Part shown: piece by piece, positions 3 to 42,653 of the stretch
Numbering within the stretch: the stretch's first letter is position 1
How the letters are laid out: each line of letters starts with the position of its first letter
Virus record (IMG/VR): IMGVR_UViG_3300027969_000041
Length of the DNA stretch: 64,000 nucleotides
Origin: a virus
Lineage: Duplodnaviria > Caudoviricetes
Reading direction: 5' to 3' (one strand)
The notes under the pieces: model-generated
Seen by the model: the letters and a program-made list of their open reading frames with translations, nothing else
Told to the model about the DNA's origin: nothing
Databases searched by the model: none
Translations under genes and position numbers: made by a program

Positions 3-2672
3 TTACTCAAACGAGAAAAGCGAACCAAACGTATTTGTTTGGGTAGTAGAGTCTAGATCCCAGTCTAGTACTCCAATAAGGTTATCAAGTTTATTATTGA
101 TAATAGTTGCTTCCATTTCAGCATGATCAAATGGCAGATCTTGGAACCATTTAGGTAAGCGTAGTTCATCTACAGGATATGCAATACTGGTGTAACCTAA
201 CGGATTAGCTTTCACTTTGCAGACAATAACTTTCATACCATCTACTATTTGCATAGAATACTTGTCGCCGTTCATACGACGAAGGGTATTCCAATTAATA
301 CTAGCCCGAACGTGTCCTGGCATATTTGCCTTACCGGACTTTTCTTCTTTCTTTTGGTATTCAGCAATGTTGTTGGCACGTTTAGGACTACCCTTCTCCC
401 ATCCAGGACGAGATTTGAACTCAGTTCTAAATTCACTGATGCGATCTAGAATTTCTGTTTCTTGTGCGTTGTTAAGTACCTTTGTTAGAATCTCTTCTAA
501 GAATTTCTGCATAAATTCTGGTGTGTCACTACGCTTAAGATCTAAACCCATGGCCTTAATTTTACCTGGCTTGCCATCTACATCACTGCGTTTGCCTTCT
601 TTGTCATAGTACAACACAGCATATCGTTTTTTAGTAATAAACAATCCCTTGATGGCAACAATCTCGCGGCCTGCTTTAATAACTTCACCACGACTCTTTG
701 GACAGTGGTGTGCATCCAACATAAACTGCGGAAATGTACTATTAACTTCTTCAGCAATTGTATCATACAACTGTACTACAGTATCTTTATTCCATGTTAT
801 CTCTTTCTTTTCAATTTCCTTACGGAGACTTGAATAAGCACTAAAATAAGCAGAGTCTGTATCACCGTAGATAATACTTTTGCCTAAGTGATCATACTCG
901 CCCGTAACTACTTCATTGATTTTACTAGCCATGTGTCGAGCAATGCCGCGGCCTGTAAGGGTAGTGGATTGACCAATTCGATTATCAAAGAAGCGACAAC
1001 CGGCGTTAAGAATGGCACCATACAAACTATTAAGCAAAATCTTTTTAACGAGCTGTCGCTTGTCCCAATATTCTTCTTCAATTTTATTACCTGCCTTAAT
1101 TGCATCCTTAAGTTTTGCCTGCATCTCTTTACGCTCTGCGTACCACCGTTTTAGCAATCCAGGAATAATACCTTCACGTTCATGAGTAATGATTGTACCA
1201 TTAGCACTAAGCATCCACGGCTTACCACTTTCAAATATTAGTTCGTAGATTTGTGCTCCACTCATAATATCAGTTTCACCGTTTTCCCAGTCAATGATAA
1301 TGTCGTGACTGCGATCTTGAGTCATAACAAATTCATATTCGTTAGCACCAAACTTGCCCTCCCATGCAGCCGCAAAAGAGTTACCTTTGGCAATCTTTTC
1401 TTCGATTTCCGCTTTAGTATAATCTTGGCGTAACTGTCCTACAATGGTTTCTGGACCCATGTTCAATGCACGAATTACAGATGGATACAAACTGTTAATG
1501 TCCATTGATCCAATATAATCGTGCAGTCCTTTTTTAGGATAAGCAACATACGCACCAGCGGCCTGATTAACAGCGTCCTCGTCACGCTTAGGGCGACTAG
1601 GAACAATAAGTCCCCTTGCATGGGATTCGTTTACAATAGCCTGTTCAGTAACAGCGACAGCACCCATTGTAGTTTGTAGTAACACAGTATTCTCATGTGC
1701 AATAGTACTGGCAAGATCTAAGAACTTTAATTTTTTATCTAGCTTGTTTAACAATGCCGTATCTTGTCTATTATATTCAATAAACTTTCGGAAGTCATTG
1801 TTATAAAGTTGATCTAGTGTACCTTCGTAGACTGTCTTGCTCTCACCTACCTCAGTTTCTCCGATGGCATCCAGTCGATAAGTGTGTCGTTCTTCGTATG
1901 TGTACTTGCGGTACAATTCGAGACTATCCAAATGAACACGACCAACAAGGTCATAAGTAACAGCCGCTTTTCCATATTTTTCGTATTCTCTTTTCTTAGG
2001 GAATTGATCCCACAAACAAAATCTACGTGTATCTTCTTTGCTGAGAACTTTAGTAACACGATTAACAGTATAGGGGATATCAAAACCTTCGCTATTCCAC
2101 CCACTGAGTACATCGCTATCCTGAATTAAATCTAAGAACGCATCTAACATCTCCGCTTCTGTTTCGAACAACATAGTGTTAGGAAACTCTTTGACTTGTT
2201 CTTCTGCTTGCTCCATAGTCAGTGTCTTTGGCGGAACTGCAAGACATACTAGTGTATCCAACCATTGTAGGTGAACAGCAATAGCAGTGATTGGCATAAA
2301 AGCATCTTCTGGAGTGCTATAGCCACGTTCTGGATCAAAGTCCACCTCGATATCAAAAAATGCTACATTGAGTTTTGGAGCATCCTTGCCTAGATAGTTT
2401 TCTTCTAGACAACGGAATACTGGATTGATGTCACTTTCAAATAATTTGTGACTACTGTGAATTTTTTGTTCTTTGACAAACTCTTTCCAGTTACGTGCAG
2501 TAACTTTGTTAAGATTGTCTCCGTAAATGGATTTATACTTACCCCGTTGGTCTGGGTAATAGAACATATACTTTGCAGGATATTCTTGATAAAGTCTACC
2601 CTTCTTTGGATCACGTTCGATAACCTGAACAATGTCCTTTTCTCGGTCCCACCGAGCATCTACATAACTCAT
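3..2672 (-). CDS. Family B DNA polymerase (T4 gp43-like)
   Basis: Exo motifs DIEVD, NSEGFDIPY, YNRQD; pol motifs DINSLYPS, KILLNSLYG, YGDTDS. Start moved to MSYV at 2672 after an AAGGAG RBS. Confidence 0.97.
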   Translation of the reverse strand: MSYVDARWDREKDIVQVIERDPKKGRLYQEYPAKYMFYYPDQRGKYKSIYGDNLNKVTARNWKEFVKEQKIHSSHKLFESDINPVFRCLEENYLGKDAPKLNVAFFDIEVDFDPERGYSTPEDAFMPITAIAVHLQWLDTLVCLAVPPKTLTMEQAEEQVKEFPNTMLFETEAEMLDAFLDLIQDSDVLSGWNSEGFDIPYTVNRVTKVLSKEDTRRFCLWDQFPKKREYEKYGKAAVTYDLVGRVHLDSLELYRKYTYEERHTYRLDAIGETEVGESKTVYEGTLDQLYNNDFRKFIEYNRQDTALLNKLDKKLKFLDLASTIAHENTVLLQTTMGAVAVTEQAIVNESHARGLIVPSRPKRDEDAVNQAAGAYVAYPKKGLHDYIGSMDINSLYPSVIRALNMGPETIVGQLRQDYTKAEIEEKIAKGNSFAAAWEGKFGANEYEFVMTQDRSHDIIIDWENGETDIMSGAQIYELIFESGKPWMLSANGTIITHEREGIIPGLLKRWYAERKEMQAKLKDAIKAGNKIEEEYWDKRQLVKKILLNSLYGAILNAGCRFFDNRIGQSTTLTGRGIARHMASKINEVVTGEYDHLGKSIIYGDTDSAYFSAYSSLRKEIEKKEITWNKDTVVQLYDTIAEEVNSTFPQFMLDAHHCPKSRGEVIKAGREIVAIKGLFITKKRYAVLYYDKEGKRSDVDGKPGKIKAMGLDLKRSDTPEFMQKFLEEILTKVLNNAQETEILDRISEFRTEFKSRPGWEKGSPKRANNIAEYQKKEEKSGKANMPGHVRASINWNTLRRMNGDKYSMQIVDGMKVIVCKVKANPLGYTSIAYPVDELRLPKWFQDLPFDHAEMEATIINNKLDNLIGVLDWDLDSTTQTNTFGSLFSFE

Positions 2673-2743
2673 ATTTTCTCCTTTGTGTAATTTGCGGCCT
2701 ACACATACCTCTATGATCATTTGTGGCTGATCAAACCTTTCTC

Positions 2744-3034
2744 TTACATATTTATTAGTCTAATGTAGCCAATAAGATCAATAGTGACTAATAGAATATA
2801 ATTTGCTACCATACCTGTACTCTTACGTGTCCAAGCAGCCCATCCAAAGATGGCGCATTGTGTAATGAATATTGGATATAACCAAATAAACAATGGATCA
2901 GTTGCGCCGGCGGCAAGTGTAAGAGAGCAGCCGAGACTCATAGCCCATGCTGTAATTTCTAAAACAAAACGAGTAGGCCAAACTTTATAATCGGTCTTAG
3001 CCCATTCTATAATACCACTTAACAATTTATTCAT
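2744..3034 (-). CDS. Small membrane protein
   Basis: 96-aa ORF with about three hydrophobic segments, overlapping the upstream gene. Confidence 0.7.
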   Translation of the reverse strand: MNKLLSGIIEWAKTDYKVWPTRFVLEITAWAMSLGCSLTLAAGATDPLFIWLYPIFITQCAIFGWAAWTRKSTGMVANYILLVTIDLIGYIRLINM

Positions 3035-3659
3035 CGAGATTTTCTAACAACAAGTTAATGTTAATTACCATTCTATATTCGCTGTCTACCGGCGTCCAAT
3101 TGCAATGATAGTATGTAGAATCGAATATAAAAAGTTGTCCTTGCTTGGGTGTAACTTCCATTAATACTTTTGGCATTTCATCTAACTGTGTAAAAATATT
3201 TGTTTTTTTATCAAATAAAACAGTATTGCCATCAGCTGTGTTTACATAATATAATAGCGATATAAACTTTGAACCTTTTGGAAGAGCAACATTTTCTGGT
3301 ATTGTCATATCAGTATGAGGTGTTCTTAGACTTGATGTTTTATCTGGTGTATCAAAGTTTGCCTGTGCTCGTTCAACATAGTTAACAACATAATCTGTTC
3401 CTTCTAAGAACTTAAAAAGTATATAGTCAACTATCTTAACATTTTTATTAAGAGGCTGTCCGCCCTGAATAAAATAATAACTAAAAATATGTCGATCTGC
3501 AGGAAACACATCGTTACAGATTGCTGGATCGACTGAATGCGGCCTAAAAGACCATAGGCCTTCTGCTTTTAGTGTTTCTAAAAGAAATTCCTGATCTTCT
3601 TCATCTAAAAAATTATCGATTACAATTGGATCGAAATCTTTTTTAAGTTGAATAGGCAT
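3027..3659 (-). CDS. 2OG-Fe(II) oxygenase-like protein
   Basis: PHTD ... YYH facial triad, LLYYVN and RMVININ strands typical of phage 2OG oxygenases. Confidence 0.8.
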   Translation of the reverse strand: MPIQLKKDFDPIVIDNFLDEEDQEFLLETLKAEGLWSFRPHSVDPAICNDVFPADRHIFSYYFIQGGQPLNKNVKIVDYILFKFLEGTDYVVNYVERAQANFDTPDKTSSLRTPHTDMTIPENVALPKGSKFISLLYYVNTADGNTVLFDKKTNIFTQLDEMPKVLMEVTPKQGQLFIFDSTYYHCNWTPVDSEYRMVININLLLENLDE

Positions 3660-3928
3660 TAGTCTTCCTTGCGAAAACTATGACCGCTGATGTCGACAAT
3701 AGTTTCAAGATCGTCAAACTCGCGGAATACTTGATCCCATGTATCTTTCTGTGCAATCTTAATTGCTTTTTTAATCACGCTAGGTTTAACTTCTAGTTCT
3801 TCTGCTACTGCTTTAATTGTTTCGTTCAATCCTTCTGTAAGGTCTTGAATCTCTTGCATGACAGTCATGCCTTCTGCTACGATTTGTTTAATCTTAGCTT
3901 GTTCCGGTGCGCCAAATGCTTTGCCCAT
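3659..3928 (-). CDS. DsbA/GapR-like dsDNA-binding protein
   Basis: Coiled coil followed by VAEELEVKPSVIKKAIKIA; start moved to 3928 after AAGGAG. Confidence 0.6.
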   Translation of the reverse strand: MGKAFGAPEQAKIKQIVAEGMTVMQEIQDLTEGLNETIKAVAEELEVKPSVIKKAIKIAQKDTWDQVFREFDDLETIVDISGHSFRKED

Positions 3929-3977
3929 AAAAAATCTCCTTGTAAGTAAGTATATACTAAGCAAGGAGACAAGTCAA
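3929..3977 (-). promoter_or_regulatory. sigma70 promoter inside an RBS-occluding, terminator-like hairpin
   Basis: TTGACT(3977-3972)-N17-TATACT(3954-3949); 8-bp inverted repeat 3935-3942/3962-3969 followed by T6. Confidence 0.8.
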
Positions 3978-3985
3978 TGGTTATT

Positions 3986-4528
3986 TTATAAACGGGCGTC
4001 TATAATATTCCAATTGATAATTTTCCAATGATTTGTGAGATACCCTTTTTTGTCTGCTTGATAATCCAATGCCCAAGCATGTTCCCACCAATCGATTAAT
4101 AATATTATATCGTTCTTAATTTGATGATTGACAATAGTTTTGATCTCACCATTCTTGGCAAGATACACCCATCCACTGCCCTGTATGCCCATGGCAACTT
4201 TGGTAAATTCTTCTTTGAACTGGTCAAATGATTTGAAATGTTGCTCAATAAACTCTTTGGATGCTCCAACTGGTTCGTTTGTTTCATCTGGAATTTGTAG
4301 TTGCGGAAAATAGATACTATGTAAGTATGCACCTGCTTCGTTAAAATCTAAGTCACCTTCGCCTGCGTTGAAACGATTAACATAAGTTCTGTACAGTTTG
4401 CCATAATGATAATCTATAGCGTCTTCGCTTAGGCAAGGCTCTAGCGCATCGCGAGCATAGGATAACTTCACTTGTTCAAGTGGTTTAACCTCTTTACCCT
4501 CTACAACATATTTTATAAAATTAAACAT
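3986..4528 (-). CDS. Fe/Mn superoxide dismutase
   Basis: HYGKLYRTYV, LHSIYF, GIQGSGWVYL, DWWEHAW; all four metal ligands appear present. Confidence 0.93.
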   Translation of the reverse strand: MFNFIKYVVEGKEVKPLEQVKLSYARDALEPCLSEDAIDYHYGKLYRTYVNRFNAGEGDLDFNEAGAYLHSIYFPQLQIPDETNEPVGASKEFIEQHFKSFDQFKEEFTKVAMGIQGSGWVYLAKNGEIKTIVNHQIKNDIILLIDWWEHAWALDYQADKKGYLTNHWKIINWNIIDARL

Positions 4529-5127
4529 TATTTCTTTTTACCTGAACGCATATTGGCTTGCCAATGTGCAAGTTGCCCTTTACGACCACCTTGTTTGGCA
4601 ATCTTTCTTAAACTGCTGATACTAGCATGTTTAGGAATACCGTGTCTAGCACTATCACCTTTGTCTTGCGGATTACGACCGTCAGCGAAGTTTTCCTCTA
4701 CATCCTGCTGACCTTCTATAGTCAATCTGTCTAATGCTATCGGATTTAATACAACATTTGGTTTCAAGCCCTTGCTGCTGGCATAGGCCACATACACTTG
4801 ATCTGTAGGTTCTATAACAAAACTTACACAATGCTTACCGGGCCAGTCTGGTTTGCCCACACTAAACCAAATGCCTATGACAGGAATAAATGGATGTTCA
4901 TCTGTGCTCAACCGACCATATTCTCGTTCGCCTGTGGCATCACGGCGTGGCTTTAGTCCTCCACTTTTCTTAATTGCTTCTAGCCTATTAGTACAATGAT
5001 AAACTCGTTGACCTACTATGTCCTGTCCAGGAAATAGATTTGTACCAGGAATATTCTTGGGGGGTCTAAGTCCTTGGTAGTTGGTAAATCCTTCGGCAAA
5101 GTTTTCAATTAGTTCTTGAATTTTCAT
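4528..5127 (-). CDS. Putative head-internal protein: ADP-ribosyltransferase-like domain plus basic C-terminal module
   Basis: VYHCT..IKKSGGLKP..GIWFS resembles ART/PARP-like strands; N-terminus MKIQELIE; start 5127 after AGAGG. Confidence 0.55.
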   Translation of the reverse strand: MKIQELIENFAEGFTNYQGLRPPKNIPGTNLFPGQDIVGQRVYHCTNRLEAIKKSGGLKPRRDATGEREYGRLSTDEHPFIPVIGIWFSVGKPDWPGKHCVSFVIEPTDQVYVAYASSKGLKPNVVLNPIALDRLTIEGQQDVEENFADGRNPQDKGDSARHGIPKHASISSLRKIAKQGGRKGQLAHWQANMRSGKKK

Positions 5128-5128
5128 A

Positions 5129-5716
5129 TTACCTCTTAGGAGGTTGAGCACTGGCTACCATGCCGTTATAGTCAGCGTTCTTAAATTGAGGAATAGTATT
5201 CATAGCAATAGTTTCAGCTTCTCTAGCATGACTTGCTTTAATTTTAACTGCTGGTATCTCAGGAAACTCTAAACTGTAGACCCAAAATTCAAGTCCGGGT
5301 TTAGTCACTGTAAATGATTCCCCGTAGTGTTGTAGGTCCCAACTTGGTAATAATCTTTTTACCATTTTTGCGTATAAGCCTTGTCTTGAACCTTCTTTGG
5401 CAGCAAAGGTTAATCGTCTTACTGCGCCTTTTCTATCTGCTAGGAATGTTTTTAGAATATCAACTACTGTACCAAAAACTTCTGCGGCATTGCCCGTACC
5501 TGTAACACCCCATGTAGCATTTCCAGAAGATTCTACTTTAGCTGTAAATTCAATTTCCCAATCTCCCGGCGCCTCGTCCGAATCTTGTGCAGCAAAGAAT
5601 TTATAAGGAACTCCGCCAATTTCAAAATTAGCTATTGCTTGGTTGTCATCTTGAAATGTCCACTGCCATTGTTTATTGCCAGTGAACAATTCTGCAATAA
5701 ATTCATCGGCTCTCAT
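5129..5716 (-). CDS. Putative head-internal protein (possible GNAT-like fold)
   Basis: Starts MRADEFIAE at an ATGA overlap, resembling the T4 capsid-targeting sequence; the fold call is weak. Confidence 0.55.
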   Translation of the reverse strand: MRADEFIAELFTGNKQWQWTFQDDNQAIANFEIGGVPYKFFAAQDSDEAPGDWEIEFTAKVESSGNATWGVTGTGNAAEVFGTVVDILKTFLADRKGAVRRLTFAAKEGSRQGLYAKMVKRLLPSWDLQHYGESFTVTKPGLEFWVYSLEFPEIPAVKIKASHAREAETIAMNTIPQFKNADYNGMVASAQPPKR

Positions 5717-6507
5717 TCGCAGTTCCACTTTCTTAATGCTAGAGCTTTGCGTGTAGGTTCACCGTTGGGCTTTTTCATTGGCCCTTTACTGCCACCCATT
5801 CTAGCACAAAATGATTTACGACGCTTGGCCGCCTTGCTTCCGGGTTTAAGTTTGCTAGGTTTAGTAGTAACTGCTGTTTGTAATTTGCTGCCTGGATTTT
5901 CTCTACGATAGCTAGCAACACCTTTAGCATTTAAGCCACCGTTCTTGTTCTTGCCTGCCTTGCGATGCCAAGCAGCTGATTCGGCAACATGACCATCTAA
6001 GAATGTATCGGCAAACTTTTTACAAAGAGTGCGTATAGCAGGATTGCGAGTTTCTTCTAAAGTAAATGTGCGTTCATCATGCTTATCATCACCTTGACTT
6101 GGGTCTTGATATCCGCAATATACTTTATGTACTATGGAGTCATTAATTAGTTCTGTACAGCTTTCGCCATAGCGTCCGTCTGCTGTAATATCACTGTGCT
6201 CGCTACATGGACTAAGAGTTGTAATAATGATACTACCTTTTGGCACAGGTTGACCATAATTACTTTCATATTCTTCAATGGCAGCTCTTTCTGCGTGTAC
6301 TCGACTACCATCTTCGTTGGGATAATTTACAGAGGCAGCTAAATTATTATCAGGATCTAGAACACCGGCAGCAACCATACCGTAGTGTTTGCTGTCCTCT
6401 TGTTGTCCTTCGATAACCATCTCACATAACTTAACTAGTATTTGATCTAGTTTTTCGTGGTTATGTATTTCGTAGTCATCTGACTCTAATAAATCGGTTA
6501 TTTTCAT
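5713..6507 (-). CDS. Zn-dependent deaminase (RibD/CDA-like) fused to a basic phage module
   Basis: HAERAAI and TTLSPC..C motifs; C-terminal SAAWHRKAGKN...RKWNC basic module after GHVAE. Confidence 0.8.
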   Translation of the reverse strand: MKITDLLESDDYEIHNHEKLDQILVKLCEMVIEGQQEDSKHYGMVAAGVLDPDNNLAASVNYPNEDGSRVHAERAAIEEYESNYGQPVPKGSIIITTLSPCSEHSDITADGRYGESCTELINDSIVHKVYCGYQDPSQGDDKHDERTFTLEETRNPAIRTLCKKFADTFLDGHVAESAAWHRKAGKNKNGGLNAKGVASYRRENPGSKLQTAVTTKPSKLKPGSKAAKRRKSFCARMGGSKGPMKKPNGEPTRKALALRKWNCE

Positions 6508-7859
6508 TTCTTCTTAGGAACACGGATTGGTAGTTTGCTGATGTCGTGACCTTGGTCTGCATTGGCAAATTCTTGTCCAACGTTTTGTTTGACTTTTACT
6601 TTTTGTGCAAATTGTGGATTATTTGCAACACCTACCATTAAGTTATGCTGTGCTTGACTAACAGAACGCTCTAACATGTTTGTCAGTGATTCCATATAAG
6701 CATCTTCATCTACTAGAGATATCATAGCATTAGAAAGATCTACACCGGCTGCTGCCTGTCCTCTGCCCCATTTAATTAAGTTACTACGACCCGTAATAGG
6801 TTGAGGATTTAATGGCTTACCGTCAATGGTAAGATTGTATTTTCTAAATTCTCTAGGATCATCTTCGCCTTCGGGATCTCTTGGCCCCCGACTAAACCCT
6901 GTAGTGTTGGCGTGATAGTTATTCCTATATACCCCTTCTACCTTGGCTTTTAATTCTGCTAAACGGGCTTGTAATTCTTCCTTCATTAAAGAATCATTGC
7001 CAGTCTGACGTTCTACTTCACGCTCTTTATCACTGATCATAAAGTTCATAATACCAACAACTGATTCTTGTGCCTGACTAAGTTTCATCTGTACCCATTC
7101 TGGTAAATCTTCTTCATCACCGATAGCATGTTCTAAATGTTTTAAGACTCGTAGCATAGTATGGATTTGATTCTTTACAAAACTACCTTCCATACTGTCG
7201 TGGTCTTGTGGATCAATGGTATCTAATTCTGTATCCGATACGTTGCCTTGATCGTCTTCCGCCACACCTTGCCCTAATGGACTTTTTGGTGGAACATATT
7301 TCTTTCCAGTCCTCGGATCCACTCTCTGCGAGGGGTGATTTCCATAGCCTTGTTCCGCCACACCTTGCTGATCTTTTTGTAACCAATCATAAACACTTAC
7401 TAGGTCACTGGGAAAGTCTTCGTCATAGTTAAATACAGACATAGCTCTTTTATTACCTAGGTCTTTTACTGCTATAGGCCAAGCTGCATCTAATATTGCG
7501 TTCTCGTCTTTGATATTTGGATTTGCGCCAAACACTTGTTTTGCTAAATCTTCAGCATATGAAGATTCTGCTAGAGGCTTTTTATGTTTTACATCACCTT
7601 GCTTCATTGCTTTTTTCTTATCTTTGTGTTGACCAGCACCACCCATCTTGGCGTTCTTAGCAACAAAGTTACGAGGCTTTGGAGTTTCTTTCTTTTCTTG
7701 TGCAAGGATGTTATCGCCCGGTGGGTTGCGTCTTTGCATACCGCCTAGTGTACTATCCATACTTGCAATGTCGCTTGTACTAGAACTTCCACCTGTTGCG
7801 CTTTCTAATGTGTAAACAGTTTGTTCTTTAGATTTTGTAACTTTAAATTCGTGTTTCAT
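6504..7859 (-). CDS. Modular putative head-internal polyprotein
   Basis: Short modules separated by TLE, LAE, QGVAE (twice), MKE, MLE; no catalytic motif recognised. Confidence 0.6.
   Translation of the reverse strand: MKHEFKVTKSKEQTVYTLESATGGSSSTSDIASMDSTLGGMQRRNPPGDNILAQEKKETPKPRNFVAKNAKMGGAGQHKDKKKAMKQGDVKHKKPLAESSYAEDLAKQVFGANPNIKDENAILDAAWPIAVKDLGNKRAMSVFNYDEDFPSDLVSVYDWLQKDQQGVAEQGYGNHPSQRVDPRTGKKYVPPKSPLGQGVAEDDQGNVSDTELDTIDPQDHDSMEGSFVKNQIHTMLRVLKHLEHAIGDEEDLPEWVQMKLSQAQESVVGIMNFMISDKEREVERQTGNDSLMKEELQARLAELKAKVEGVYRNNYHANTTGFSRGPRDPEGEDDPREFRKYNLTIDGKPLNPQPITGRSNLIKWGRGQAAAGVDLSNAMISLVDEDAYMESLTNMLERSVSQAQHNLMVGVANNPQFAQKVKVKQNVGQEFANADQGHDISKLPIRVPKKK
7257..7271 (-). repeat. QGVAE junction repeat, copy 1
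   Basis: CAAGGTGTGGCGGAA on the minus strand. Confidence 0.9.
7353..7367 (-). repeat. QGVAE junction repeat, copy 2
   Basis: CAAGGTGTGGCGGAA, identical to copy 1. Confidence 0.9.
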
Positions 7860-8212
7860 TTTTTCATCCAGTTTGCTACAGGACTTACAGTATATACGTT
7901 GTCCATTTCTTGACTGCGACTATTAGTCCAAACTTGCTTACTACCGTCACCAACTTGTTGTGAAGCATAATTAATGATATCCATTTCGGCCTCTGTGTAA
8001 GGTGCTAATAACGGATCACCACCGATCCAGTTTTCTGCTTTAGTAGGAAATTCAGGAGCACCTGCCATTGCCAATCCAAAACGATAATGTAACCGAGCAC
8101 TGCCGTGATTCATATTCTGTGCAGGCATTGTGGTTACACTTCTCATAGAAGACTTTACATTTTTAGAAATCTTCTTTATCCCGCCTTCGACAACAAATTC
8201 TTGTGCTCTCAT
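7856..8212 (-). CDS. Putative head-internal protein
   Basis: Starts MRAQEFVVE, a CTS-like N-terminus. Confidence 0.6.
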   Translation of the reverse strand: MRAQEFVVEGGIKKISKNVKSSMRSVTTMPAQNMNHGSARLHYRFGLAMAGAPEFPTKAENWIGGDPLLAPYTEAEMDIINYASQQVGDGSKQVWTNSRSQEMDNVYTVSPVANWMKK

Positions 8213-8213
8213 A

Positions 8214-8654
8214 TTAATTACTCTTTAGACTAGCACGTAGGAACCAACCGTGTTTTTCGTGTGCGTCCATGCGTTCTGCTAGGAAATTGCTGAAGCCATG
8301 CTTACCGGCAGCTTCTGCGGCATCGTATGTTTTCTTTAGGATAATAATCATCTTTTCATTATCCATTAATAATTCTTGCATCATTGCACCTGGAAGAAGA
8401 ATTTCAGTTTCGTCTTCTACCTTGCTCAACATATTAAACCGTGATAAACTAGCAGGAGTATATGTTTCTATTTTGCGAATATTTTCTGCAAAGTTGTCAA
8501 TGCTGCCGTATACTTCTGTATAGATAACATCAAATAATTGATGATATTCGTAAAAGTCTTTACCTTCTACATTCCAGTGAAAGTTCTGTGCTTTTAGCGC
8601 AAAACTAAATTCACTGGCGAAGGCAATTTTTGCAATTTGTTGTAGCTGTTCCAT
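8214..8654 (-). CDS. dps: Dps/ferritin-like protein
   Basis: KAQNFHWNVEG, EYHQLFD, D..AE.IR, HEKHGWFL; start moved to 8654. Confidence 0.93.
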   Translation of the reverse strand: MEQLQQIAKIAFASEFSFALKAQNFHWNVEGKDFYEYHQLFDVIYTEVYGSIDNFAENIRKIETYTPASLSRFNMLSKVEDETEILLPGAMMQELLMDNEKMIIILKKTYDAAEAAGKHGFSNFLAERMDAHEKHGWFLRASLKSN

Positions 8655-8661
8655 GATACTA

Positions 8662-8670
8662 TATTTATTA
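8662..8670 (-). promoter_or_regulatory. T4-like late promoter (TAATAAATA)
   Basis: Motif 7 nt before the dps ATG; similar to T4 TATAAATA. Confidence 0.6.
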
Positions 8671-8922
8671 TTTTCCAAACCATAACTTAAACCATTCATC
8701 TGTGCCTGGTTTAATGTTTTGTTCTCGTTGTATTTGCCCTTTATTGCTGCCTACAACAGGCTGTCTTAGTGTAGCTCTATATTCTGATAGGCGCTCTGCA
8801 ACCCCTAATCCACCCATCATAGCGGCAGCTTTTAATTCGTGTATAGGATCTTCCGGAGCAAGATAAGCATCTTCTGCACTATCTTGTACTAGATCATCTA
8901 CGGTTATTCTGTATTGCTTCAT
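8668..8922 (-). CDS. Hypothetical phage protein
   Basis: 84-aa ORF ending IKPGTDEWFKLWFG, in operon. Confidence 0.75.
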   Translation of the reverse strand: MKQYRITVDDLVQDSAEDAYLAPEDPIHELKAAAMMGGLGVAERLSEYRATLRQPVVGSNKGQIQREQNIKPGTDEWFKLWFGK

Positions 8923-11900
8923 TTACAATAATCTTATTGATCAATGCATCCATGATGTTTTGTACATCTTCGCTTACAGGCACATACTTATTCTCGCTGA
9001 TCTTTTTACAACTACCTTCTTCGCCTCGTGCTTTACCTGGAACTTTTCTAAAACCTGTCCAGCACTTATCGTAGATTTTACTGTTGCCGTGTGCTTCGCA
9101 CATACCACAATCTGGGCATACTGCTTCCATGTCAATGCTTTCATCGTGCTTCTTTTTACCGGCACAGTGAGCCTTTTGTGAGAATCCTTTTGGATGACTG
9201 CAATTGATACTGCTCTTGTACTTTTGACTCCACTCTTCCGCCACTCCTTGATGTATTCGTGTCAAATCACTAGTAAGTACATCTTTAGTAATACCACCAA
9301 AGTCAGACAAAATTGTAATGCGAGAATATTTACGATCTTTTGATTGGGCTTCAATCTTTGCTTTTCGTCCTAGGTAAGATACTATATCACCAACTCCTAG
9401 TTGTTTAACTGTTGCGCCGCCTAGGTTAACTGGCGTATCACCTGCAAAGTTGCCTTGTGGTCCCCATGGATCATCGTTTGCTGATTCACCTTGCTGTTTT
9501 TGTTTTTCGGCCCATTGCTTTTCAAACTCTGCTTTTGCTTGTGCAGCTCTTTCTTTACTTGCGTCGGACTTTTGTTTTTGTTGATCCCAAGCCTTGCCTA
9601 ATTTTGCGGCAGCACTTGTACGAGTAGTCTCAGTAAGTCGAGGGCGAATTAATGCTGTGGATAATCTTTCAGCAACTGGTTGTGCTACCGGAGCAGGTTG
9701 TTGTACTGCGGGTTGTTGTGCAGGTTGTTGTGCTGGTGGTTGTATTTGCATCTTATTCCCCGAAATGTCCATTAAATGTTTAATCCAGTTTGGTGGAAGT
9801 TTTTGAGCACCATAATTTCCGCCGTTAAATCCGTTATTCCAAAAAGCAAATTTTTGTTCTGCTGTTTCAGTAGGAACCCATTTGCCCTTGGTTACCTCTA
9901 CAGAACTTTGAGATAGTGCTTGACGCATTTTGGTAAAACTCATACCGCTGCCGCCAGCCGCTTCATCTCGTTCTGTAACTTCTACTTCTATTTTAACATG
10001 CTCGTACCCTGGAAACTTTCTAACTTTCATTAACGACGCCCGGAACTGTTCGGCCATTGCTTTTCTGTCCTTACCTACTACTATCCAAACTGTATCGTAT
10101 CTTGGAGGTTTTCCTGGTAGAGGATTAATCAATTCATGCTTAATCTTTTGAAGTAAAGATCCGCCGTCGTGATCTACTGTTGAAATATTTTTAGCATATT
10201 GAGGATATAACTTATTCCATGTTTGTACTTTAACTGCTGGAGGAATAGGATCATCCGGGCCTTCAGCATTGCCAATGAACAAATAAGGATCACCACCTGT
10301 TTTATTTGCCAGTGCAATAGCCTCACTAAACAGTTGTTGATGTCCCATGTGACCAACTAAACTACCGACAGCGACTACTGCTGTTTTACTTTCGCCCCTC
10401 GGGCGTTCTGTTCTGGCACTGGCCATAGCAGCGTTCTTAGCACTGATAACATCGCGCTGTTCTTGGCTAGTAACTTTGATAGGACCTAGGCGACTATTGA
10501 TAACAATGCCTTCGTAGTCTTTGCCTAATATATCTTTACCAATAATATTAGGATCTTCAATAATGGCTTTTTCTAATGACAGCTTAATAGGTTGTAGTTT
10601 TTCTTCAACTTCTCTTTTAAGTTGTTGACTTACACGATCACGCTTGCCTGATGTATCACTGACAATCTGTTTTAATTCTTCGATGTTGTCCAATGGATTA
10701 ATAAGTTCAGTAACATCCAGTCCTTCTTTTTGTGTAAGACTATTATCAATAAACATTACACTACCACTGCTACCTACACTTAATAATTCTTTGATAAACT
10801 TATTAGAATCTTCTAGGTCTTCTCCTGTGCCAGCATCTGTGACACGGAATGGTACTAACGCAAGTTGTACACCTTCTGGTAATTTGTCATACTGTATACC
10901 TACAAATTTTAATTTACCTTCTGGAGTTTCTGTAGCAAACGGCAAATACAATACTTCGCAGGTTACTTGTTTGTTAACTAAAAACTCCGCACCTAGTTTG
11001 CTGTCTACTAATTGAATAGCATTCATCATTTCGTTGAATAGTTGATCAAACAACTGAGCACGACCTAGTATATCTGGATCAGTTGTACCTTTTTGTTTAT
11101 GGTATGCTAGGAAACCTGCTTGATAGCGCGGCTCAGTACGGCTAGTACCCATAAAAGGTTTGCCGTCTGCGTTCTTACCGAAGCGACCACCAAATCCATC
11201 TACTTTAACATTTAACGGAATATTCTGTAATCTAAAACTTCCATTACCGTCGCTTATTTCATCTAGTAGATCTAAAAAATCAGGTGCCTTTAGATCACGA
11301 AGGTGTGGCATACCTTTGCGTAGCTGTGCTTTAACTTCTGCTTCTGCTAATGGTTGAGCGGGCTTCTTGGCATTAAACGCAGCTTCATAATCTTTGGCCA
11401 TTTGTAAAACTTGCTTACGCATGTTCTTCATACCTGTTTGGTCTAACAGATAATCTATGGCTGTCATTTTTGTTTTGAAATCAGTCGTTGGATCATCGGC
11501 ATCGATCATTTGAGCGCCTTTGCCAAAGTTAATCTTTAAGAATTCATTAACTACAATTTGATGTTGATCGGGCGTAAAATATTGTTTCATTAATTCTACA
11601 CTGCCAACAAAGCTGGCCATCATTTTAGTTTGATTGCCTTCGGCAGGTGTACCAAAGAACTGCTCAAATTGTAGACTCATGTCTTTGATATATTCACTGT
11701 CTTTTGGCTCCAACGGAACCATTACAGGAACACCGTTAATTTCTAACGGAATATTTTCTTCTGGAGTAGGTTGGCGATATTTGGCACGAACCCCACCGCC
11801 TCCTACACTAGCTACAGCAAAACTAAAATTGGCATCGTGGAATGGCGGTGGCGGACTATCTAAATCTGCAACATACTCTTTGCCGTCGTCGCCTCCGAAT

Positions 11901-12682
11901 ATTCTAACACCCTTTTTCTTACCGGCACCTGTTACTTTAGCAATATATTTGTCAGTAGGAGCAACTTTGGCCAATGAACGATACAGCCATTGACGGAATA
12001 CACCCTTCATACCTACTTCTAGATCTTCCCAAGCACTACCATGACTTACCTGTGCCCATTCTGTAGGAATTTCAAATCCTCTAGCATCTGTGGTATAATC
12101 ACTAAATTCTAAATCAACTTGTAAAGTAATAGGCGGTTCGTGTACTTGCCATAATGCTAACCATTGGTCACTTCCCTTTTTTGTACCTAACAATGTAGCA
12201 CTACCAATATTAGCGCCGATGTTTTTATGTACAAATTCTTCTATCTGTGGTTCTAATCTGCGATCAATTTGTGTATCAATGTCGCCGACTTTTTTCTTTA
12301 CACGTTGAAAGTCTTTGTCAGCGACGCCAATCTCTTTTGGGTTAGTATCTGACTCGGGCTGATTTGGATTAAATCTAGGATTTGGTTGACGCAACTGCAT
12401 AAACCATTTACTGCTTCCGCTAATAAATGTTTCTACTTCTTTTTCAATTAACTCTGGACTCCAAATTGGTCTGCCGTATTGTTTAGTGAATAAGTTATTG
12501 ATATCGACTAATAGTTGTTTTACCGCAGGCTGCATAGCGGCACGGTTCTTTGAATCTATTTTACCTGCACTATAGGTGCCTGGCACGCCGGTCCATCCAA
12601 CAGTAGGTGTACCTGCAGCAGTATGACTGGCAAGGTTACCGCCTTCGTTGATTTGTTTTTTGAATATATCCCTCAGTATCAT
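8894..12682 (-). CDS. 1262-aa multidomain protein: pol-beta-like NTase + ligase-like NTase + HIGH nucleotidyltransferase + small Cys modules
   Basis: GSS..GDIDTQID..QVDLE; KVDG..EVLY..EGIVI..IKV; GHMGH..SFTKMR. Confidence 0.7.
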   Translation of the reverse strand: MILRDIFKKQINEGGNLASHTAAGTPTVGWTGVPGTYSAGKIDSKNRAAMQPAVKQLLVDINNLFTKQYGRPIWSPELIEKEVETFISGSSKWFMQLRQPNPRFNPNQPESDTNPKEIGVADKDFQRVKKKVGDIDTQIDRRLEPQIEEFVHKNIGANIGSATLLGTKKGSDQWLALWQVHEPPITLQVDLEFSDYTTDARGFEIPTEWAQVSHGSAWEDLEVGMKGVFRQWLYRSLAKVAPTDKYIAKVTGAGKKKGVRIFGGDDGKEYVADLDSPPPPFHDANFSFAVASVGGGGVRAKYRQPTPEENIPLEINGVPVMVPLEPKDSEYIKDMSLQFEQFFGTPAEGNQTKMMASFVGSVELMKQYFTPDQHQIVVNEFLKINFGKGAQMIDADDPTTDFKTKMTAIDYLLDQTGMKNMRKQVLQMAKDYEAAFNAKKPAQPLAEAEVKAQLRKGMPHLRDLKAPDFLDLLDEISDGNGSFRLQNIPLNVKVDGFGGRFGKNADGKPFMGTSRTEPRYQAGFLAYHKQKGTTDPDILGRAQLFDQLFNEMMNAIQLVDSKLGAEFLVNKQVTCEVLYLPFATETPEGKLKFVGIQYDKLPEGVQLALVPFRVTDAGTGEDLEDSNKFIKELLSVGSSGSVMFIDNSLTQKEGLDVTELINPLDNIEELKQIVSDTSGKRDRVSQQLKREVEEKLQPIKLSLEKAIIEDPNIIGKDILGKDYEGIVINSRLGPIKVTSQEQRDVISAKNAAMASARTERPRGESKTAVVAVGSLVGHMGHQQLFSEAIALANKTGGDPYLFIGNAEGPDDPIPPAVKVQTWNKLYPQYAKNISTVDHDGGSLLQKIKHELINPLPGKPPRYDTVWIVVGKDRKAMAEQFRASLMKVRKFPGYEHVKIEVEVTERDEAAGGSGMSFTKMRQALSQSSVEVTKGKWVPTETAEQKFAFWNNGFNGGNYGAQKLPPNWIKHLMDISGNKMQIQPPAQQPAQQPAVQQPAPVAQPVAERLSTALIRPRLTETTRTSAAAKLGKAWDQQKQKSDASKERAAQAKAEFEKQWAEKQKQQGESANDDPWGPQGNFAGDTPVNLGGATVKQLGVGDIVSYLGRKAKIEAQSKDRKYSRITILSDFGGITKDVLTSDLTRIHQGVAEEWSQKYKSSINCSHPKGFSQKAHCAGKKKHDESIDMEAVCPDCGMCEAHGNSKIYDKCWTGFRKVPGKARGEEGSCKKISENKYVPVSEDVQNIMDALINKIIVNEAIQNNRR
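9236..9250 (-). repeat. QGVAE junction repeat, copy 3
   Basis: CAAGGAGTGGCGGAA, one mismatch to copies 1 and 2. Confidence 0.9.
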
Positions 12683-12683
12683 G

Positions 12684-13058
12684 TTAGCGTCCTAACTTGT
12701 ACTTATCTTTGACTACATCTTCACGGAAGTGATTGAATAACTTTTCGCAGAGTTCTTTGCGTAATTCTTCTGTGAATGTTTTTTCAGGACGACCTGTTAA
12801 CTTTTTGTGATGATAGTATTCCATGCAACCTTTGTTAACCATAGGTAAGAATTCTTTAATACATTGTTCTTTGTCTAACTCTTCTTTCATACTCTGATGC
12901 TTCATCTTTTTTGCAATGGGCAAGGCATAGTCTTTGTGTAGTTTATCGTGATCTAGAATGTACCAAAATAGGTCATCGTGCATCTCTTTGTCGTCACTAT
13001 TTTTAGACATCTCTTTGCTGATATCTATTGTTTTTCCAAAAAATTCATTTAATAACAT
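12684..13058 (-). CDS. Hypothetical protein, first gene of the cargo operon
   Basis: 124-aa ORF starting MLLNEFF, downstream of a late-promoter motif. Confidence 0.75.
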   Translation of the reverse strand: MLLNEFFGKTIDISKEMSKNSDDKEMHDDLFWYILDHDKLHKDYALPIAKKMKHQSMKEELDKEQCIKEFLPMVNKGCMEYYHHKKLTGRPEKTFTEELRKELCEKLFNHFREDVVKDKYKLGR

Positions 13059-13111: not shown

Positions 13112-13120
13112 TATTTATTA
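13112..13120 (-). promoter_or_regulatory. T4-like late promoter (TAATAAATA)
   Basis: Intergenic, about 54 nt upstream of 13058. Confidence 0.65.
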
Positions 13121-13548: not shown

Positions 13549-14220
13549 TTATGCCACTATTAGGTTCTCTCTTAGTACATATTCTTCTACAACCCGAACA
13601 TTATTACCTAAAAATAGACCAAACATGGCCAGTGTTTTATCATCCTCAACATACATAAATGGTGCTTGTACATAGGCGTTTCTGCCAGATAACCATCTAC
13701 TTGTAGAGTCTGCAATAGATATACTGCTGCCATATTTTTTAGCCCATTCTAAGAACTTAGGTCTAGAATCTAATGGCATGTTTGGTCTAAAGTTTATCTT
13801 GTATCTATATTTGTCATACGGAAAATTACTACAAATAACTTTCTTTTTACCACTGGACAGCATGAATTCTAGTTCTTCGTCGCTATCTGGCCCTGTAACT
13901 GCTTTGAGCCATTTGCCCATGTCTTTAACGATAGCATCTTTTAATTCACGATCCTTGCAAAAGAAGTTAAAATGACTTCCCTCTGCACGAATCTGTAAAT
14001 CCTTGTCTAGATAAGGTTCAACTACATTTAAAAATTCAATCACACAGGCTTTTTCCTGATCGGAGGATTTAACCCATGTGTTTGTTTTCTGTGCTGCCCA
14101 ATGTCTAGTGCCTTCTGCGCCAAGCCTAATAATCATACTAGACCTAGTTAGGATACATTCAATCTTAAAAGGCCACTTACCGTAGTAGAGCTTATTGATT
14201 TTCTGCTTCAGCCGGCTCAT
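13549..14220 (-). CDS. Hypothetical protein
   Basis: 223-aa ORF coupled to clpA. Confidence 0.75.
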   Translation of the reverse strand: MSRLKQKINKLYYGKWPFKIECILTRSSMIIRLGAEGTRHWAAQKTNTWVKSSDQEKACVIEFLNVVEPYLDKDLQIRAEGSHFNFFCKDRELKDAIVKDMGKWLKAVTGPDSDEELEFMLSSGKKKVICSNFPYDKYRYKINFRPNMPLDSRPKFLEWAKKYGSSISIADSTSRWLSGRNAYVQAPFMYVEDDKTLAMFGLFLGNNVRVVEEYVLRENLIVA

Positions 14221-16471
14221 CTTTGACCTTCATAATAGGCATAATATCAATGATATTAAGTTTTAGCTCGTTATTTGCAACTGTGACTTCGACTACGCCA
14301 CCGTTAATTAACTTACCAAACAATATCTCTTTACTCAGAGGCTTTTTAATCATTTCATCAATAGTACGTTGCAGTGGGCGAGCACCCATCTTACTGTCAA
14401 ACCCTTTGCTGATCAAGTACTCAACTGCTTCTGTGTTAGGTTTAACATGGATATTCTTATCTTTGACTAATGCATTAAGTTCGTCGATAAACTTCTTAAC
14501 AATTTTAATCATTGTTTGTTGATCTAACTTGCCAAACTTGATAACACCATCTAACCGATTACGGAATTCTGGAGCAAAGAACTTATTAACAGCGTCTTTC
14601 GGATCGCTATCGCGTTCCAAACTGCCAAAGCCGACGCTGTTCTTTTCAGCATCGGCAGCACCTAAGTTACTGGTTAGAATAACAATGGCATTACGACCAT
14701 CTGCTTTCTTACCATTACTGCCGGTGATAAAACCGTTATCCATTAATTGTAATAAAATAGTCAACACATCTGGGTGTGCTTTTTCAACTTCGTCTAGTAA
14801 TAGTACACAGTTAGGGCTTTCTTGCAAGCTGGTAATCAGCTGACCAGCATTGTCGTCAAACCCTACATAGCCCGGAGGAGCACCGATGAACTTGGCAACA
14901 CTGTGTTTCTCTTGAAATTCACTCATATCAAATCGTACAAGTTTGGTATTAAGATTTGCAGCCAGTTGTTTGGCAGCTTCTGTTTTGCCTACACCCGTCG
15001 GGCCTACAAATAAGAAGCTACCAATAGGTTTGTTAGGTGATTTTAAACCTGCTTGTGCAATAAACACTTTATCCAACAATGTTTCGATGGCTTTTTCCTG
15101 ACCATAGACCTTGGCTTTCATGTTCTTTTCTAGAGTTGCTAGATTAGCACCTTCTTTATTTGTTAGTTGTTCAACTGGCAATCCAGCAATACGACTAACT
15201 TCGAACAAAATTTCTTCATGATCAACAACACCGTCTTCTTGATCTTTGACTTTAAATCTAGCACAGGCACAGTCGATTAAGTCAATTGCTTTATCGGGCA
15301 ACTTCTTATCGCTCATATACTTGATAGAATATTTTACACTGTCAATAATTGCTTGATTAGTGATCTTAACACCGTGATGTTTTTCGTAATACTTCTTAAG
15401 ACCTTTAATAATCTTAATAGCAGTTGCTTCGTTAGGCTCATCTATGGTAACACGCTGGAATCGACGCATTAATGCACGATCCTTTTCAAAGTGTTTACGA
15501 TATTCTTCCCATGTGGTACTTGCTACAACTTTAATTGTTCCTTTACCTAGAGCAGATTTAAGCATATTGGCCATATCGTTGCTACTACCGTTGGCTGCTC
15601 CAGCCCCATTCATCATGTGTGCTTCGTCTATGAACAAGATACACTTGCCTTTTTTCTCAATAGCCCCAATAACAGTTTTGAGTCTTTCTTCAAAATCACC
15701 ACGATACTTGCTGCCTGCAAGCATAGCACTAATGTCTAGGCTATAAACAGTATGGTCCTGAATAAACTTAGGCACATTACCTTCAACAATCTTACGGGCA
15801 AGCCCTTCTGCGATGGCAGTTTTACCCACACCTGGATCACCAATCATAATAGCATTGGCTTTTGTACGGCGAGCAAGTACTAGTTGAATATCTTCAATCT
15901 CTTTTTCGCGACCAATAACAGGGTCAATCTTTCTATTCTTTGCTTTAGCTGTAAGATTAGTACAGAATTGTACAATCATCTTTTCTAGTTGTGCAGTTTG
16001 TCGAGATATACCCGGATCATCTGTAACTTGTTCTTCTTTGATAATTTCTTTCTTAATAAAACTAATGAATTGATCTTTGTCAATGTTAGCTTTACGAACA
16101 AAGTAACTAGCATGACTCTTTTTTTCTGCAAACATACTAATAAAACAATCAGCAGGTTCGATAATTTGACGACCACTAAACAATACATGTGTGAACGCAC
16201 GATTTAACATGCGGTCTACTGTGCTGGTCTTTTTAGGTTTTTCAGTATCAGCGTTGACAATTTCTTTTAGTTCATTAGAAATATATTGTTCGACATCGTC
16301 TTTTAAGACCTTGACATCTGTTCCGAAAGAAGTTAGTAGTTTTACAAACGATTCGTTATTCAGCATACTGAATAAAAAATGTTCTAGTGTAACGTACTCG
16401 TGACTATTCACACTGGCTACTTGTACAGCCTTTTCAAAGATTTCTTCTAGGTCTTTATTTGGTTCTAACAT
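14192..16471 (-). CDS. clpA: ATP-dependent Clp protease ATP-binding subunit (ClpA-type)
   Basis: Clp-N domain, Walker A GDPGVGKT and [29 protein letters not shown] loop, no ClpB middle domain. Confidence 0.95.
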
Positions 16472-16971
16472 TAACGATATTTCCTTTTTTGTGTTTTCTT
16501 AACTGCCAGTGCCCATTTAAGGGTACTAACACGATCTTGGAATACAATACCTTCTAAATGATCTAATTCATGTAAGAAGCATTTGCAATTATATCCGTCA
16601 AATTCACTTTCTTGCCACTCACCCTTGGAGTTTTGCCAGCGAGCAAGTATTTTCTTAGGACGCTTTATATTAACATAAATGCCGGGGAAACTCAAACATC
16701 CTTCCTCCACATCTTCTACTATATCTACAGTAGCAACAACCATTGGATTGAAGAATGCCTGTGCGGCATCGGGGTAGTCTCTGTGTCCCATAACAAACAT
16801 ACGAGCAGGGATTCCGACTTGATTTGCGGCAAGTCCAATGCCGTCATGTGCCAGCATTGTTTTGATCATATCTTTTTCTAACTGTACTGGATCTAGACTA
16901 GGATTAGAAAAATCAAATTCGGGTAATTGTTCTCTTAATAACGGAGAAGGAAATTTATGTATGTGTAACAT
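16471..16971 (-). CDS. def: Peptide deformylase
   Basis: GIGLAANQ, EGCLS, HELDHL motifs. Confidence 0.97.
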   Translation of the reverse strand: MLHIHKFPSPLLREQLPEFDFSNPSLDPVQLEKDMIKTMLAHDGIGLAANQVGIPARMFVMGHRDYPDAAQAFFNPMVVATVDIVEDVEEGCLSFPGIYVNIKRPKKILARWQNSKGEWQESEFDGYNCKCFLHELDHLEGIVFQDRVSTLKWALAVKKTQKRKYR

Positions 16972-16976
16972 ATTAT

Positions 16977-42652: not shown

Positions 42653-42653
42653 A

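Follow-up and report, generated by a model that had tools for sequence, protein, structure and literature searches.

The stretch of DNA analyzed here (64,000 nucleotides of the IMG/VR virus record IMGVR_UViG_3300027969_000041, hereafter the window) is part of the genome of an uncultured jumbo phage that lies in the T4 superfamily and belongs to a Rak2/Atu_ph07-like lineage. The family-B DNA polymerase encoded in it shares 50% identity with the enzyme of Sinorhizobium phage Phosso, 46% with that of Agrobacterium phage Atu_ph07, and 43% with those of Rak2-like phages, and the source genome is probably of roughly the 350-kb size class. Our subject is a block of ten minus-strand genes, running from position 13058 to 3986, that overlap or abut each other (ATGA/TAATG) and among which no minus-strand terminator was found (Table 1). 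Seven of the ten genes begin with leaders of 8-13 residues that end in hydrophobic-x-Glu. A megablast search of the block against 50,697 phage records gave zero nucleotide-level matches, and two relatives were found in IMG/VR: L001, a contig of 10.7 kb, and L002, a locus within the 331,570-bp contig G001 (93% complete), which is syntenic around the block and was taken whole as a control genome. The comparisons strongly support the view that the leaders are capsid-targeting sequences (CTSs) of the T4 type, cut at hydrophobic-x-Glu by a gp21-type protease, and that sites of this kind lie between the modules of these proteins, because the junctions match the starts of leaderless homologues, the residues P1 and P3 (first and third before the cut) are conserved, the leaders differ at synonymous codons, and all near-complete relatives have a Peptidase_S77 gene.

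Table 1. Features of the ten-gene block and its upstream motif, in window coordinates. Genes on the minus strand start at the higher coordinate; lengths are in amino acids (aa); a slash, here and in the text, marks a predicted cut.
Feature	Coordinates	Strand	Basis or remark
TAATAAATA, T4-late-promoter-like motif	13112..13120	-	53 nt before the first ATG of the block
124-aa protein, N-terminus MLLNEFFGK (start 13058)	12684..13058	-	class-3 leader-like; L-N-E at residues 3-5
Leader MILRDIFKKQINE/GG, 13 residues, of the 1262-aa polyprotein (start 12682)	12644..12682	-	homologue comparison
Domain A (residues 14-447), Pol-beta-like nucleotidyltransferase fold (GS...GDIDT), ends at QPLAE/AEV junction	11342..12643	-	phrog_19290, Foldseek
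Domain B (residues 448-745), ligase-like, KVDG motif	10448..11341	-	motifs only
Domain C (residues 746-985), HIGH-motif (HMGH) cytidylyl/adenylyltransferase-like	9728..10447	-	phrog_3041, Foldseek
Polyprotein tail: P/Q linker, putative fossil internal leader, helical basic part, QGVAE/, Cys-rich basic module	8897..9727	-	
Cys-rich basic module of the polyprotein tail	8897-9235	-	
84-aa conserved protein, leaderless, contains GVAE/RL	8668..8922	-	
Dps/ferritin-like protein, leaderless	8214..8699	-	PF00210
118-aa protein	7856..8212	-	leader MRAQEFVVE/GG at 8186-8212
451-aa multi-module protein	6504..7859	-	TLE19/, DUF7230-like basic module, mini-module, helical part
DUF7230-like basic module of the 451-aa protein, ending PLAE/	7566-7697	-	
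32-aa mini-module QGYGNHPSQRVDPRTGKKYVPPKSPLG of the 451-aa protein, flanked by QGVAE	7257-7367	-	
264-aa protein	5713..6507	-	leader MKITDLLE/S (6484-6507), deaminase, HVAE/, DUF6321
Cytidine/dCMP-deaminase domain of the 264-aa protein	6112-6423	-	PF00383
DUF6321 basic module of the 264-aa protein	5716-5976	-	PF19846
195-aa protein	5129..5716	-	leader MRADEFIAE/L at 5690-5716
199-aa protein	4528..5127	-	leader MKIQELIE/N (5104-5127), ART-fold-like core (4693-5103), DVEE/, NFADG module (4531-4692)
Fe/Mn superoxide dismutase (SOD)	3986..4528	-	leader MFNFIKYVVE/G (4499-4528) within a 19-20-residue N-terminal extension

The CTS that T4 uses on its internal proteins IPI-III and on Alt, together with its processing by gp21, was reportedly described by Mullaney and Black in 1996. 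The N-termini that an earlier note on this DNA had likened to it were all found in place on the minus strand. They fall into the classes MRAxEF[IV]xE, M[KR]Ix[EDQ][LI][LI]E, and M[IL]Lx[DE][FI]F...[IV]NE, and the SOD has a class of its own, M[YF]NFIK..[LIV]xE. The leaders in the block end in INE, VVE, LLE, IAE, LIE, and VVE, and Val and Met are also tolerated at P3. For the MRADEFIAE and MKIQELIE genes the longest open reading frames (ORFs) open at an upstream GTG (5728 and 5151, respectively), and in both cases the ATG-started leader is the form conserved in relatives. The homologue of the 124-aa protein in G001 starts with MKLYEFFG. Paralogous and orthologous leaders differ at synonymous codons, so selection acts on the protein, and an explanation of the leaders as DNA repeats was rejected on this ground.

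The leader pattern is largely confined to the block within the window. A strict pattern derived from T4 (^M[KR]x1-3[DEQ][FLI][FLIV]x0-1E) matches four of the 92 window ORFs, every one inside the block, and six of the 381 ORFs of G001, which are scattered and include no recognizable replication or metabolic enzyme. At internal Met residues, used as a control, the same pattern matched 0 of 400 positions in the window and 2 of 1640 in G001. In T4, it selects 3 of 267 ORFs, namely, IPII, IPIII, and the hypothetical gp61.1, and a looser scan found [EQ][LF][LI]xE N-termini also on gp24, gp22, gp21, and Alt. The leader scan that the earlier note had proposed, run here as a regular expression on the window, G001, and T4, shows the pattern to be specific in all three. 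The T4 protein gp61.1 (NC_000866, 18966-19130) is a 54-aa hypothetical protein encoded beside the primase gene and starts with MKTFKEFIKE, a near-copy of the CTS of IPII and IPIII; either it belongs to the head and has so far gone unrecognized, or the pattern has picked it falsely. Outside the block, a 136-aa ORF of the window (47837-48247, minus strand) has the leader-like start MIREFINIVLAE/N and matches no Pfam or PHROG family.

Homologues of domain A of the 1262-aa polyprotein occur both with and without a leader. In all eight leader-bearing homologues compared (8/8), the leader ends in INE, IGE, LTE, ISE, LLE, LLE, ILE, or VNE directly before GGN. These leaders, which come from the T4-like Campylobacter phage CP220, L002, the window, and six metagenomic proteins, are 11-16 residues long and unlike in sequence, and leaderless homologues in Stenotrophomonas phage Ps15, Xanthomonas phage BUDD, and Vibrio phage Va1 start with M-GGNV.... 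The end of the leader coincides with the natural start of the domain, and the leader is therefore an add-on. Every leader of the domain A homologues has Glu at P1 and one of Ile, Leu, and Val at P3, in keeping with the gp21 rule L/I-X-E (PMC9026906); this pair is kept while P2, P4, and leader length vary.

The same rule extends to the small modules and to the SOD. The C-terminal 54 residues of the 199-aa protein form a basic module (NFADGRNPQDKGDS..., hereafter the NFADG module) that is ~90% conserved in 1648 database proteins, where it is joined to deaminases, GNAT, ImmA/M78 peptidases, ParB-like, HAD, and other domains. The residue before this module is Glu in 105 of 105 cases, with Val, Leu, Ile, or Met at P3 in 102 of the 105 and with variable P2 and P4. 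A leader is present on 99 of the 120 listed proteins with the module, and in several of them the leader Glu directly abuts it (MKIKEIINE/NFADG). The 118-aa protein belongs to a family (92 representatives) whose members occur by themselves, preceded by a leader of 9 residues, or form a C-terminal module that follows [LIVM]-x-E, such as ...LAE/, ...LSE/, ...MVE/, and ...IAE/. Among the 120 closest homologues of the SOD, 117 keep M[YF]NFIK..[LIV]xE/G, including a variant with a two-residue insertion. DUF6321 in T4-type phages is preceded by VAE/, NE/, VSE/, VRE/, or LTE/, and it stands alone and leaderless within the head-gene module of the T7-like cyanophage S-TIP37 and of pelagiphage HTVC023P. 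In S-TIP37 (L125, 2411-2781), the leaderless DUF6321 protein and a tiny basic protein (MPAKRGLYANIHAKRKR...) are encoded between the scaffold and major capsid genes, and both are candidates for DNA-associated head proteins of podoviruses.

The 1262-aa polyprotein joins three putative enzymes to a basic tail. In a 972-residue model with a predicted local distance difference test (pLDDT) score of 70, Foldseek matched domain A to DNA polymerase beta (probability 0.99-1.0) and domain C to PPAT and FAD synthetase (probability ~1); domain C is also assigned to the cytidyltransferase family phrog_3041 (E = 1e-13). A ligase fold for domain B was not recovered by the fold search of this model, and PDB sequence searches with the three domains returned nothing. 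The junction between domains A and B (LAE447) lies in a segment with pLDDT < 50. Domain A is a free-standing gene in phages Ps15, BUDD, Va1, and CP220, and domain B is homologous to separate genes in Ps15 and BUDD. In the latter two (Ps15, 1235-4352; BUDD, 987-4336), A, an extra gene of ~320 aa, B, and C are adjacent genes beside a baseplate hub gene; the three domains therefore form a functional set that is fused in the window phage, and the conserved four-gene set possibly acts in RNA-end or NAD chemistry. Within the polyprotein tail, PVAE/RLSTALIRPRLTE/ at 9629-9667, with its counterpart PMAE/MRLFNALTMPQLTE/ in the L001 polyprotein, resembles a leader that once opened a separate gene downstream, since fused to the polyprotein gene. 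The Cys-rich mini-modules of the CW..G..C type are shared with the GC119 virion protein of cyanophages.

The gp21-like protease that the earlier note had sought was found in the relatives. We surveyed long IMG/VR contigs with the NFADG module (24 in number), and Peptidase_S77 is present in G001 and in each of the four others whose estimated completeness is at least 82%; the negatives are fragments of 17-72% completeness. The G001 enzyme is 36% identical to T4 gp21 and is encoded in a T4-like head module with the order portal, an 80-aa gene (MLLNEFIYF), an acidic 311-aa protein, Peptidase_S77, a 366-aa scaffold-like protein (MDAFKQLVE), and major capsid protein. The 80-aa gene opens with MLLNEF, as does the 124-aa protein of the window. 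The major capsid protein is a homologue of gp23 (E = 1e-39) that starts with MMSQLLNE and has LSE42/SATAG near the position of the T4 maturation cut.

A link to virions comes from cyanophages. In CsCl-purified virions of S-SCSM1, 45 proteins were detected by mass spectrometry, including an NMNAT, and NMNAT-like proteins recur in the virion proteomes of cyanophages (PMC9602691). The S-SCSM1 NMNAT starts with MKSFLQFLKE/AAES and its S-SM2 orthologue with MKSFFQFLSE/AQ; the homologue in the Rak2-like Salmonella phage Munch is leaderless. Also in S-SCSM1, gp029, annotated as a virion protein, has DUF6321 as its C-terminus and is a chain of small Cys-rich basic modules like the proteins of the block.

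The enzyme content proposed in the earlier note was recovered for the deaminase and the SOD by Pfam and for the Pol-beta-like and HIGH-type nucleotidyltransferases by fold search, but the ADP-ribosyltransferase (ART)-like assignment rests on weak fold matches. The deaminase scores 36 bits against PF00383 (cut-off 25) and has HAE, and its second motif reads PC-x17-C, the usual zinc motif being PCxxC. Dozens of relatives annotated as RibD-like deaminase bear the NFADG module where the window protein has DUF6321. For the SOD, both PF02777 (84 bits) and PF00081 (46 bits) are above cut-off, and the N-terminal hairpin domain is matched in part. The best matches of the 199-aa model are all ART-fold proteins (CC0527, KptA/Tpt1, Tox-ART-HYD1, PARP, and DarT), at E = 0.01-0.06 and TM scores of 0.3-0.5; the model itself is of low confidence (pLDDT 63.5), and therefore the assignment stays weak. 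The PolyVal models (ART-PolyVal and MPTase-PolyVal) gave no Pfam hit even at E = 5, and an Atlas lead scores 0.82. Relatives (L090) combine the leader and domain seen in the 195-aa protein with the NFADG module. At relaxed thresholds, Pfam returned nothing useful for the 124-, 118-, 84-, 195-, and 199-aa proteins or for domains A and B, and the 124-aa protein has no PHROG family either. The Dps protein matches PF00210 above cut-off (65 bits, E = 8e-18) and phrog_3636; its start is probably Met16 (8654), and the L002 orthologue starts with MSDLTKAAKIAF, matching this position. A further TAATAAATA lies at 8670-8662, in the overlap of the 84-aa and Dps ORFs and 8 nt before Met16, and the Dps gene may have its own promoter.

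The block fits a late-type operon. The upstream motif that the earlier note had reported is present at 13120-13112, but lateness depends on its likeness to a promoter. Genes for virion structure and tail fibres, and two other leader genes, have [AT]ATAAATA 15-35 nt ahead of them in the window and G001. A sigma70-like promoter (TTGACT-17-TATACT, 3949-3977, minus strand), which immediately follows the stop codon of the SOD, suggests a separate unit, read by the host polymerase, of regulator-like, 2OG oxygenase-like, and DNA polymerase genes. The window also encodes a ClpA-like ATPase (14192-16471), peptide deformylase, DnaJ, and ClpP, within 14192-17795 and 42068-42664. The ClpA and DnaJ genes are also neighbours of each other in Atu_ph07. 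A functional link between the block and the adjacent ClpA gene was considered and rejected, since this neighbourhood is kept in Atu_ph07, where the block is missing.

From these comparisons, we infer packaging, cleavage, ejection, and a host-directed function: the block would encode capsid-targeted, protease-processed cargo that leaves the particle with the DNA, and we put the probability of this reading at about 0.7. The propeptide would first dock each protein to the scaffolding core during shell assembly, and a gp21-type serine protease (Peptidase_S77) would then cut after Glu in [LIVM]-x-E. Cleavage would free the leader and split the enzymes from the small, very basic modules (NFADG, DUF6321, DUF7230-like, and Cys-rich), which probably stay with the DNA. 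The released proteins, namely, the Pol-beta-type nucleotidyltransferase, the ligase-like and HIGH-nucleotidyltransferase pair, the ART-fold protein, the deaminase, the SOD, and several of unclear nature, would stay in the head and probably exit with the DNA at infection. Such a set could act as the first-strike, anti-defence kit suggested in the earlier note.

Several observations weigh against packaged and ejected cargo. The 64-kb window has no protease or head gene. The picture of a packaged polyprotein bank draws on T4-type leaders and sites, which the comparison supports, but three of the ten genes have no typical leader: Dps (8699-8214), the 84-aa ORF, and the 451-aa ORF (MKHEF...). The claim of the earlier note that internal domains are joined by Glu sites holds in that junctions fall at the starts of leaderless homologues; generic [LIV]xE, however, is no more frequent in the block than elsewhere (15.7 vs 16.0 per 1000 residues), and a general enrichment was rejected. 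Only GVAE (4 vs 0 in the rest of the window, p = 5e-4; 1 in all of G001) and [LIV]AE (p = 0.006) are enriched, and QGVAE is an identical 15-nt word, CAAGGTGTGGCGGAA, in the window phage and L001, which makes this enrichment partly a DNA-level repeat. Cutting into single domains would be partial, because no [LIV]xE site lies between the ligase-like domain B and the HIGH-nucleotidyltransferase domain C. The Glu and hydrophobic residue before the NFADG module could belong to the fold of the module instead of a protease site. The homology of domain C to the NMNAT of S-SCSM1 virions is weak (E = 8e-3 to 2e-5, 26-30% identity), and T4 gp61.1 indicates that a CTS-like N-terminus is possible on an early-region gene of unclear fate. 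The block is missing from Atu_ph07, which among cultured phages with a virion proteome is the closest: the flanking genes are kept (gp281, gp290, and ClpA gp292), tail-fibre and ligase genes replace the block, and its virion proteome is therefore unusable as evidence here. Leader-type N-termini are absent from the corresponding locus in both Atu_ph07 and Phosso.

Targeting and processing in the prohead could also serve the particle itself. The basic modules would then compact the DNA or take up space in the core, protection of the packaged genome against oxidation would be the task of SOD and Dps, and the leader-bearing parts would be scaffold-like, partly degraded and expelled. The modules are very basic, those in podoviruses are encoded between scaffold and capsid genes, and SOD and Dps are protective enzymes. 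Also, G001 encodes two leader-bearing proteins, at 126585 and 306379, that are of low complexity and rich in Q/A/P, like core proteins, and in T4 itself gp22, gp67, and gp68 of the core are fragmented and expelled (PMC9026906). However, the nucleotidyltransferase, ligase-like, ART-fold, and deaminase domains are without an obvious substrate in the capsid, Dps is leaderless, and the closest precedent, the internal proteins of T4 along with Alt, is ejected (PMC9026906). We consider an action inside the particle unlikely.

The N-termini and junctions might instead be scars or substrates of cassette shuffling without a role in packaging or proteolysis. The word CAAGGTGTGGCGGAA occurs at five sites in two phages: on both sides of the 32-aa mini-module of the 451-aa protein, at window position 9256, and at 5144 and 5408 in L001. 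The mini-module recurs between two QGVAE sites in an unrelated protein (P0016), and the repeat looks like a junction for module insertion; one DNA word brackets a recurring mini-module, and junction repeats therefore also serve, or reflect, cassette shuffling. In the same direction point the duplication of ENFA[ED]G on each side of the ART-like domain, the apparent fossil leader inside the polyprotein, and the variation of cargo between the syntenic relatives: in L001, an HExxH metallopeptidase sits between an identical leader and an identical NFADG module, and L002, where a HAD nucleotidase is encoded, is without SOD, deaminase, and ART-like genes. However, synonymous differences are seen among the leaders and between the ENFAxG copies, and conservation over variable lengths and unrelated contexts concerns the pattern of residues (hydrophobic at P3, Glu at P1) and not any word of DNA. 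Shuffling is also compatible with targeting, as proposed for the T-even ip loci, and shuffling as the whole explanation seems quite improbable.

Least probable, and by our estimate very much so, are leaders that act as pro-sequences or tags of another system (protease-timed activation, a ClpA/ClpP N-degron, or a modifying enzyme) on enzymes that stay cytoplasmic: ClpA-like, DnaJ, deformylase, and ClpP genes do lie in the window, but ClpA and DnaJ are kept in Atu_ph07 without the block, three relatives have no radical-SAM or other maturase gene within the block or next to it, the T4 CTS and the gp21 rule are closely matched by the tag and the way it ends, and a leader-bearing relative is physically present in virions.

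Packaged, processed, and ejected cargo remains our preferred reading, and a wider version of it may be sketched. In a clade of ~350-kb freshwater and marine jumbo phages, a leader, an exchangeable enzyme, and a basic module would be joined by protease sites in a combinatorial grammar and reshuffled at repeats such as the 15-nt QGVAE word. Capsids would be loaded with thousands of enzyme combinations (RNA/NAD-handling nucleotidyltransferases, deaminase, ART-fold protein, and SOD) that enter with the DNA as a ready counter-defence and repair kit, and tethering of this cargo to DNA for co-ejection would fall to the ~90%-conserved modules NFADG and DUF6321. We regard this extension as doubtful, if possible. 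We found neither this modular grammar nor cargo of this type described in the literature for jumbo phages of the Rak2/Atu_ph07 kind. If the reading of packaged cargo is true, T4 capsid targeting would be a general and evolvable means to deliver ready-made enzymes before phage gene expression, and not a quirk of three small T-even proteins. SODs, NMNAT-like transferases, and deaminases that are called auxiliary would be read as virion cargo and not as metabolism, which would explain why NMNAT-like proteins recur in the virion proteomes of cyanophages. The leader and the [LIVM]-x-E junctions would then amount to a sequence rule that predicts injected proteins and their mature ends.

Among known systems, T4 IPI-III and Alt, reviewed with their CTS and gp21 (PMC9026906; PMC3012670), are the closest. 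The T4 CTS is MKTYQEFIAE (PMC8442874), gp21 recognizes L/I-X-E, the first 10 residues suffice for targeting, and CTSs have been suggested to load diverse proteins in T4 relatives (PMC9026906). The block shares with it a tag of ~10 residues with an equal residue pattern (MKTYQEFIAE vs MRADEFIAE and MRAQEFVVE) and a hydrophobic-x-Glu end, a gp21-type protease in the lineage, variable cargo behind a conserved tag, and, as with Alt, a putative ADP-ribosyltransferase-like member. Unlike in T4, at least seven tagged genes lie in one operon, the leaders form several classes, and internal sites occur in multi-domain polyproteins. The cargo consists of catalytic domains (Pol-beta nucleotidyltransferase, ligase-like, HIGH nucleotidyltransferase, deaminase, and SOD) in place of small basic inhibitors, conserved basic mini-modules follow protease-type junctions, and the host genome is that of a ~350-kb Rak2/Atu_ph07-like jumbo phage.

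In the giant phages phiKZ, 201phi2-1, and SPN3US, ejection or inner-body proteins are processed at S/A-x-E by a protease that is a diverged homologue of gp21 (PMC5694885; PMC10052503). Like them, the window phage is giant and would have many head-internal proteins processed after Glu, with multiple sites per propeptide. However, they are of another lineage, and their propeptides are mostly >100 residues with Ser or Ala at P3, whereas those described here are of T4 length with Leu, Ile, Val, or Met at P3. In cyanophages, the S-SCSM1 NMNAT/cytidyltransferase is a homologous HIGH-type nucleotidyltransferase with the CTS-like leader MKSFLQFLKE, and the T4-GC119 structural protein ends in DUF6321 and contains Cys-rich basic mini-modules of the block type; both are detected or annotated as virion proteins. 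The similarity to S-SCSM1 is distant (26-30% identity), the cyanophage genes are single and scattered, and the proteomic study discusses no leader or processing (PMC9602691). Finally, polyvalent proteins of phages and conjugative elements carry effector domains whose entry into the host along with the DNA has been proposed (Iyer et al., 2017; PMC5512222). As in those proteins, several effector-type domains (ART, metallopeptidase, nucleotidyltransferase, and deaminase-like) are combined here per polypeptide or cassette; unlike them, the block has no Pfam match to ART-PolyVal or MPTase-PolyVal, and its delivery would use a T4-type CTS and a prohead protease.

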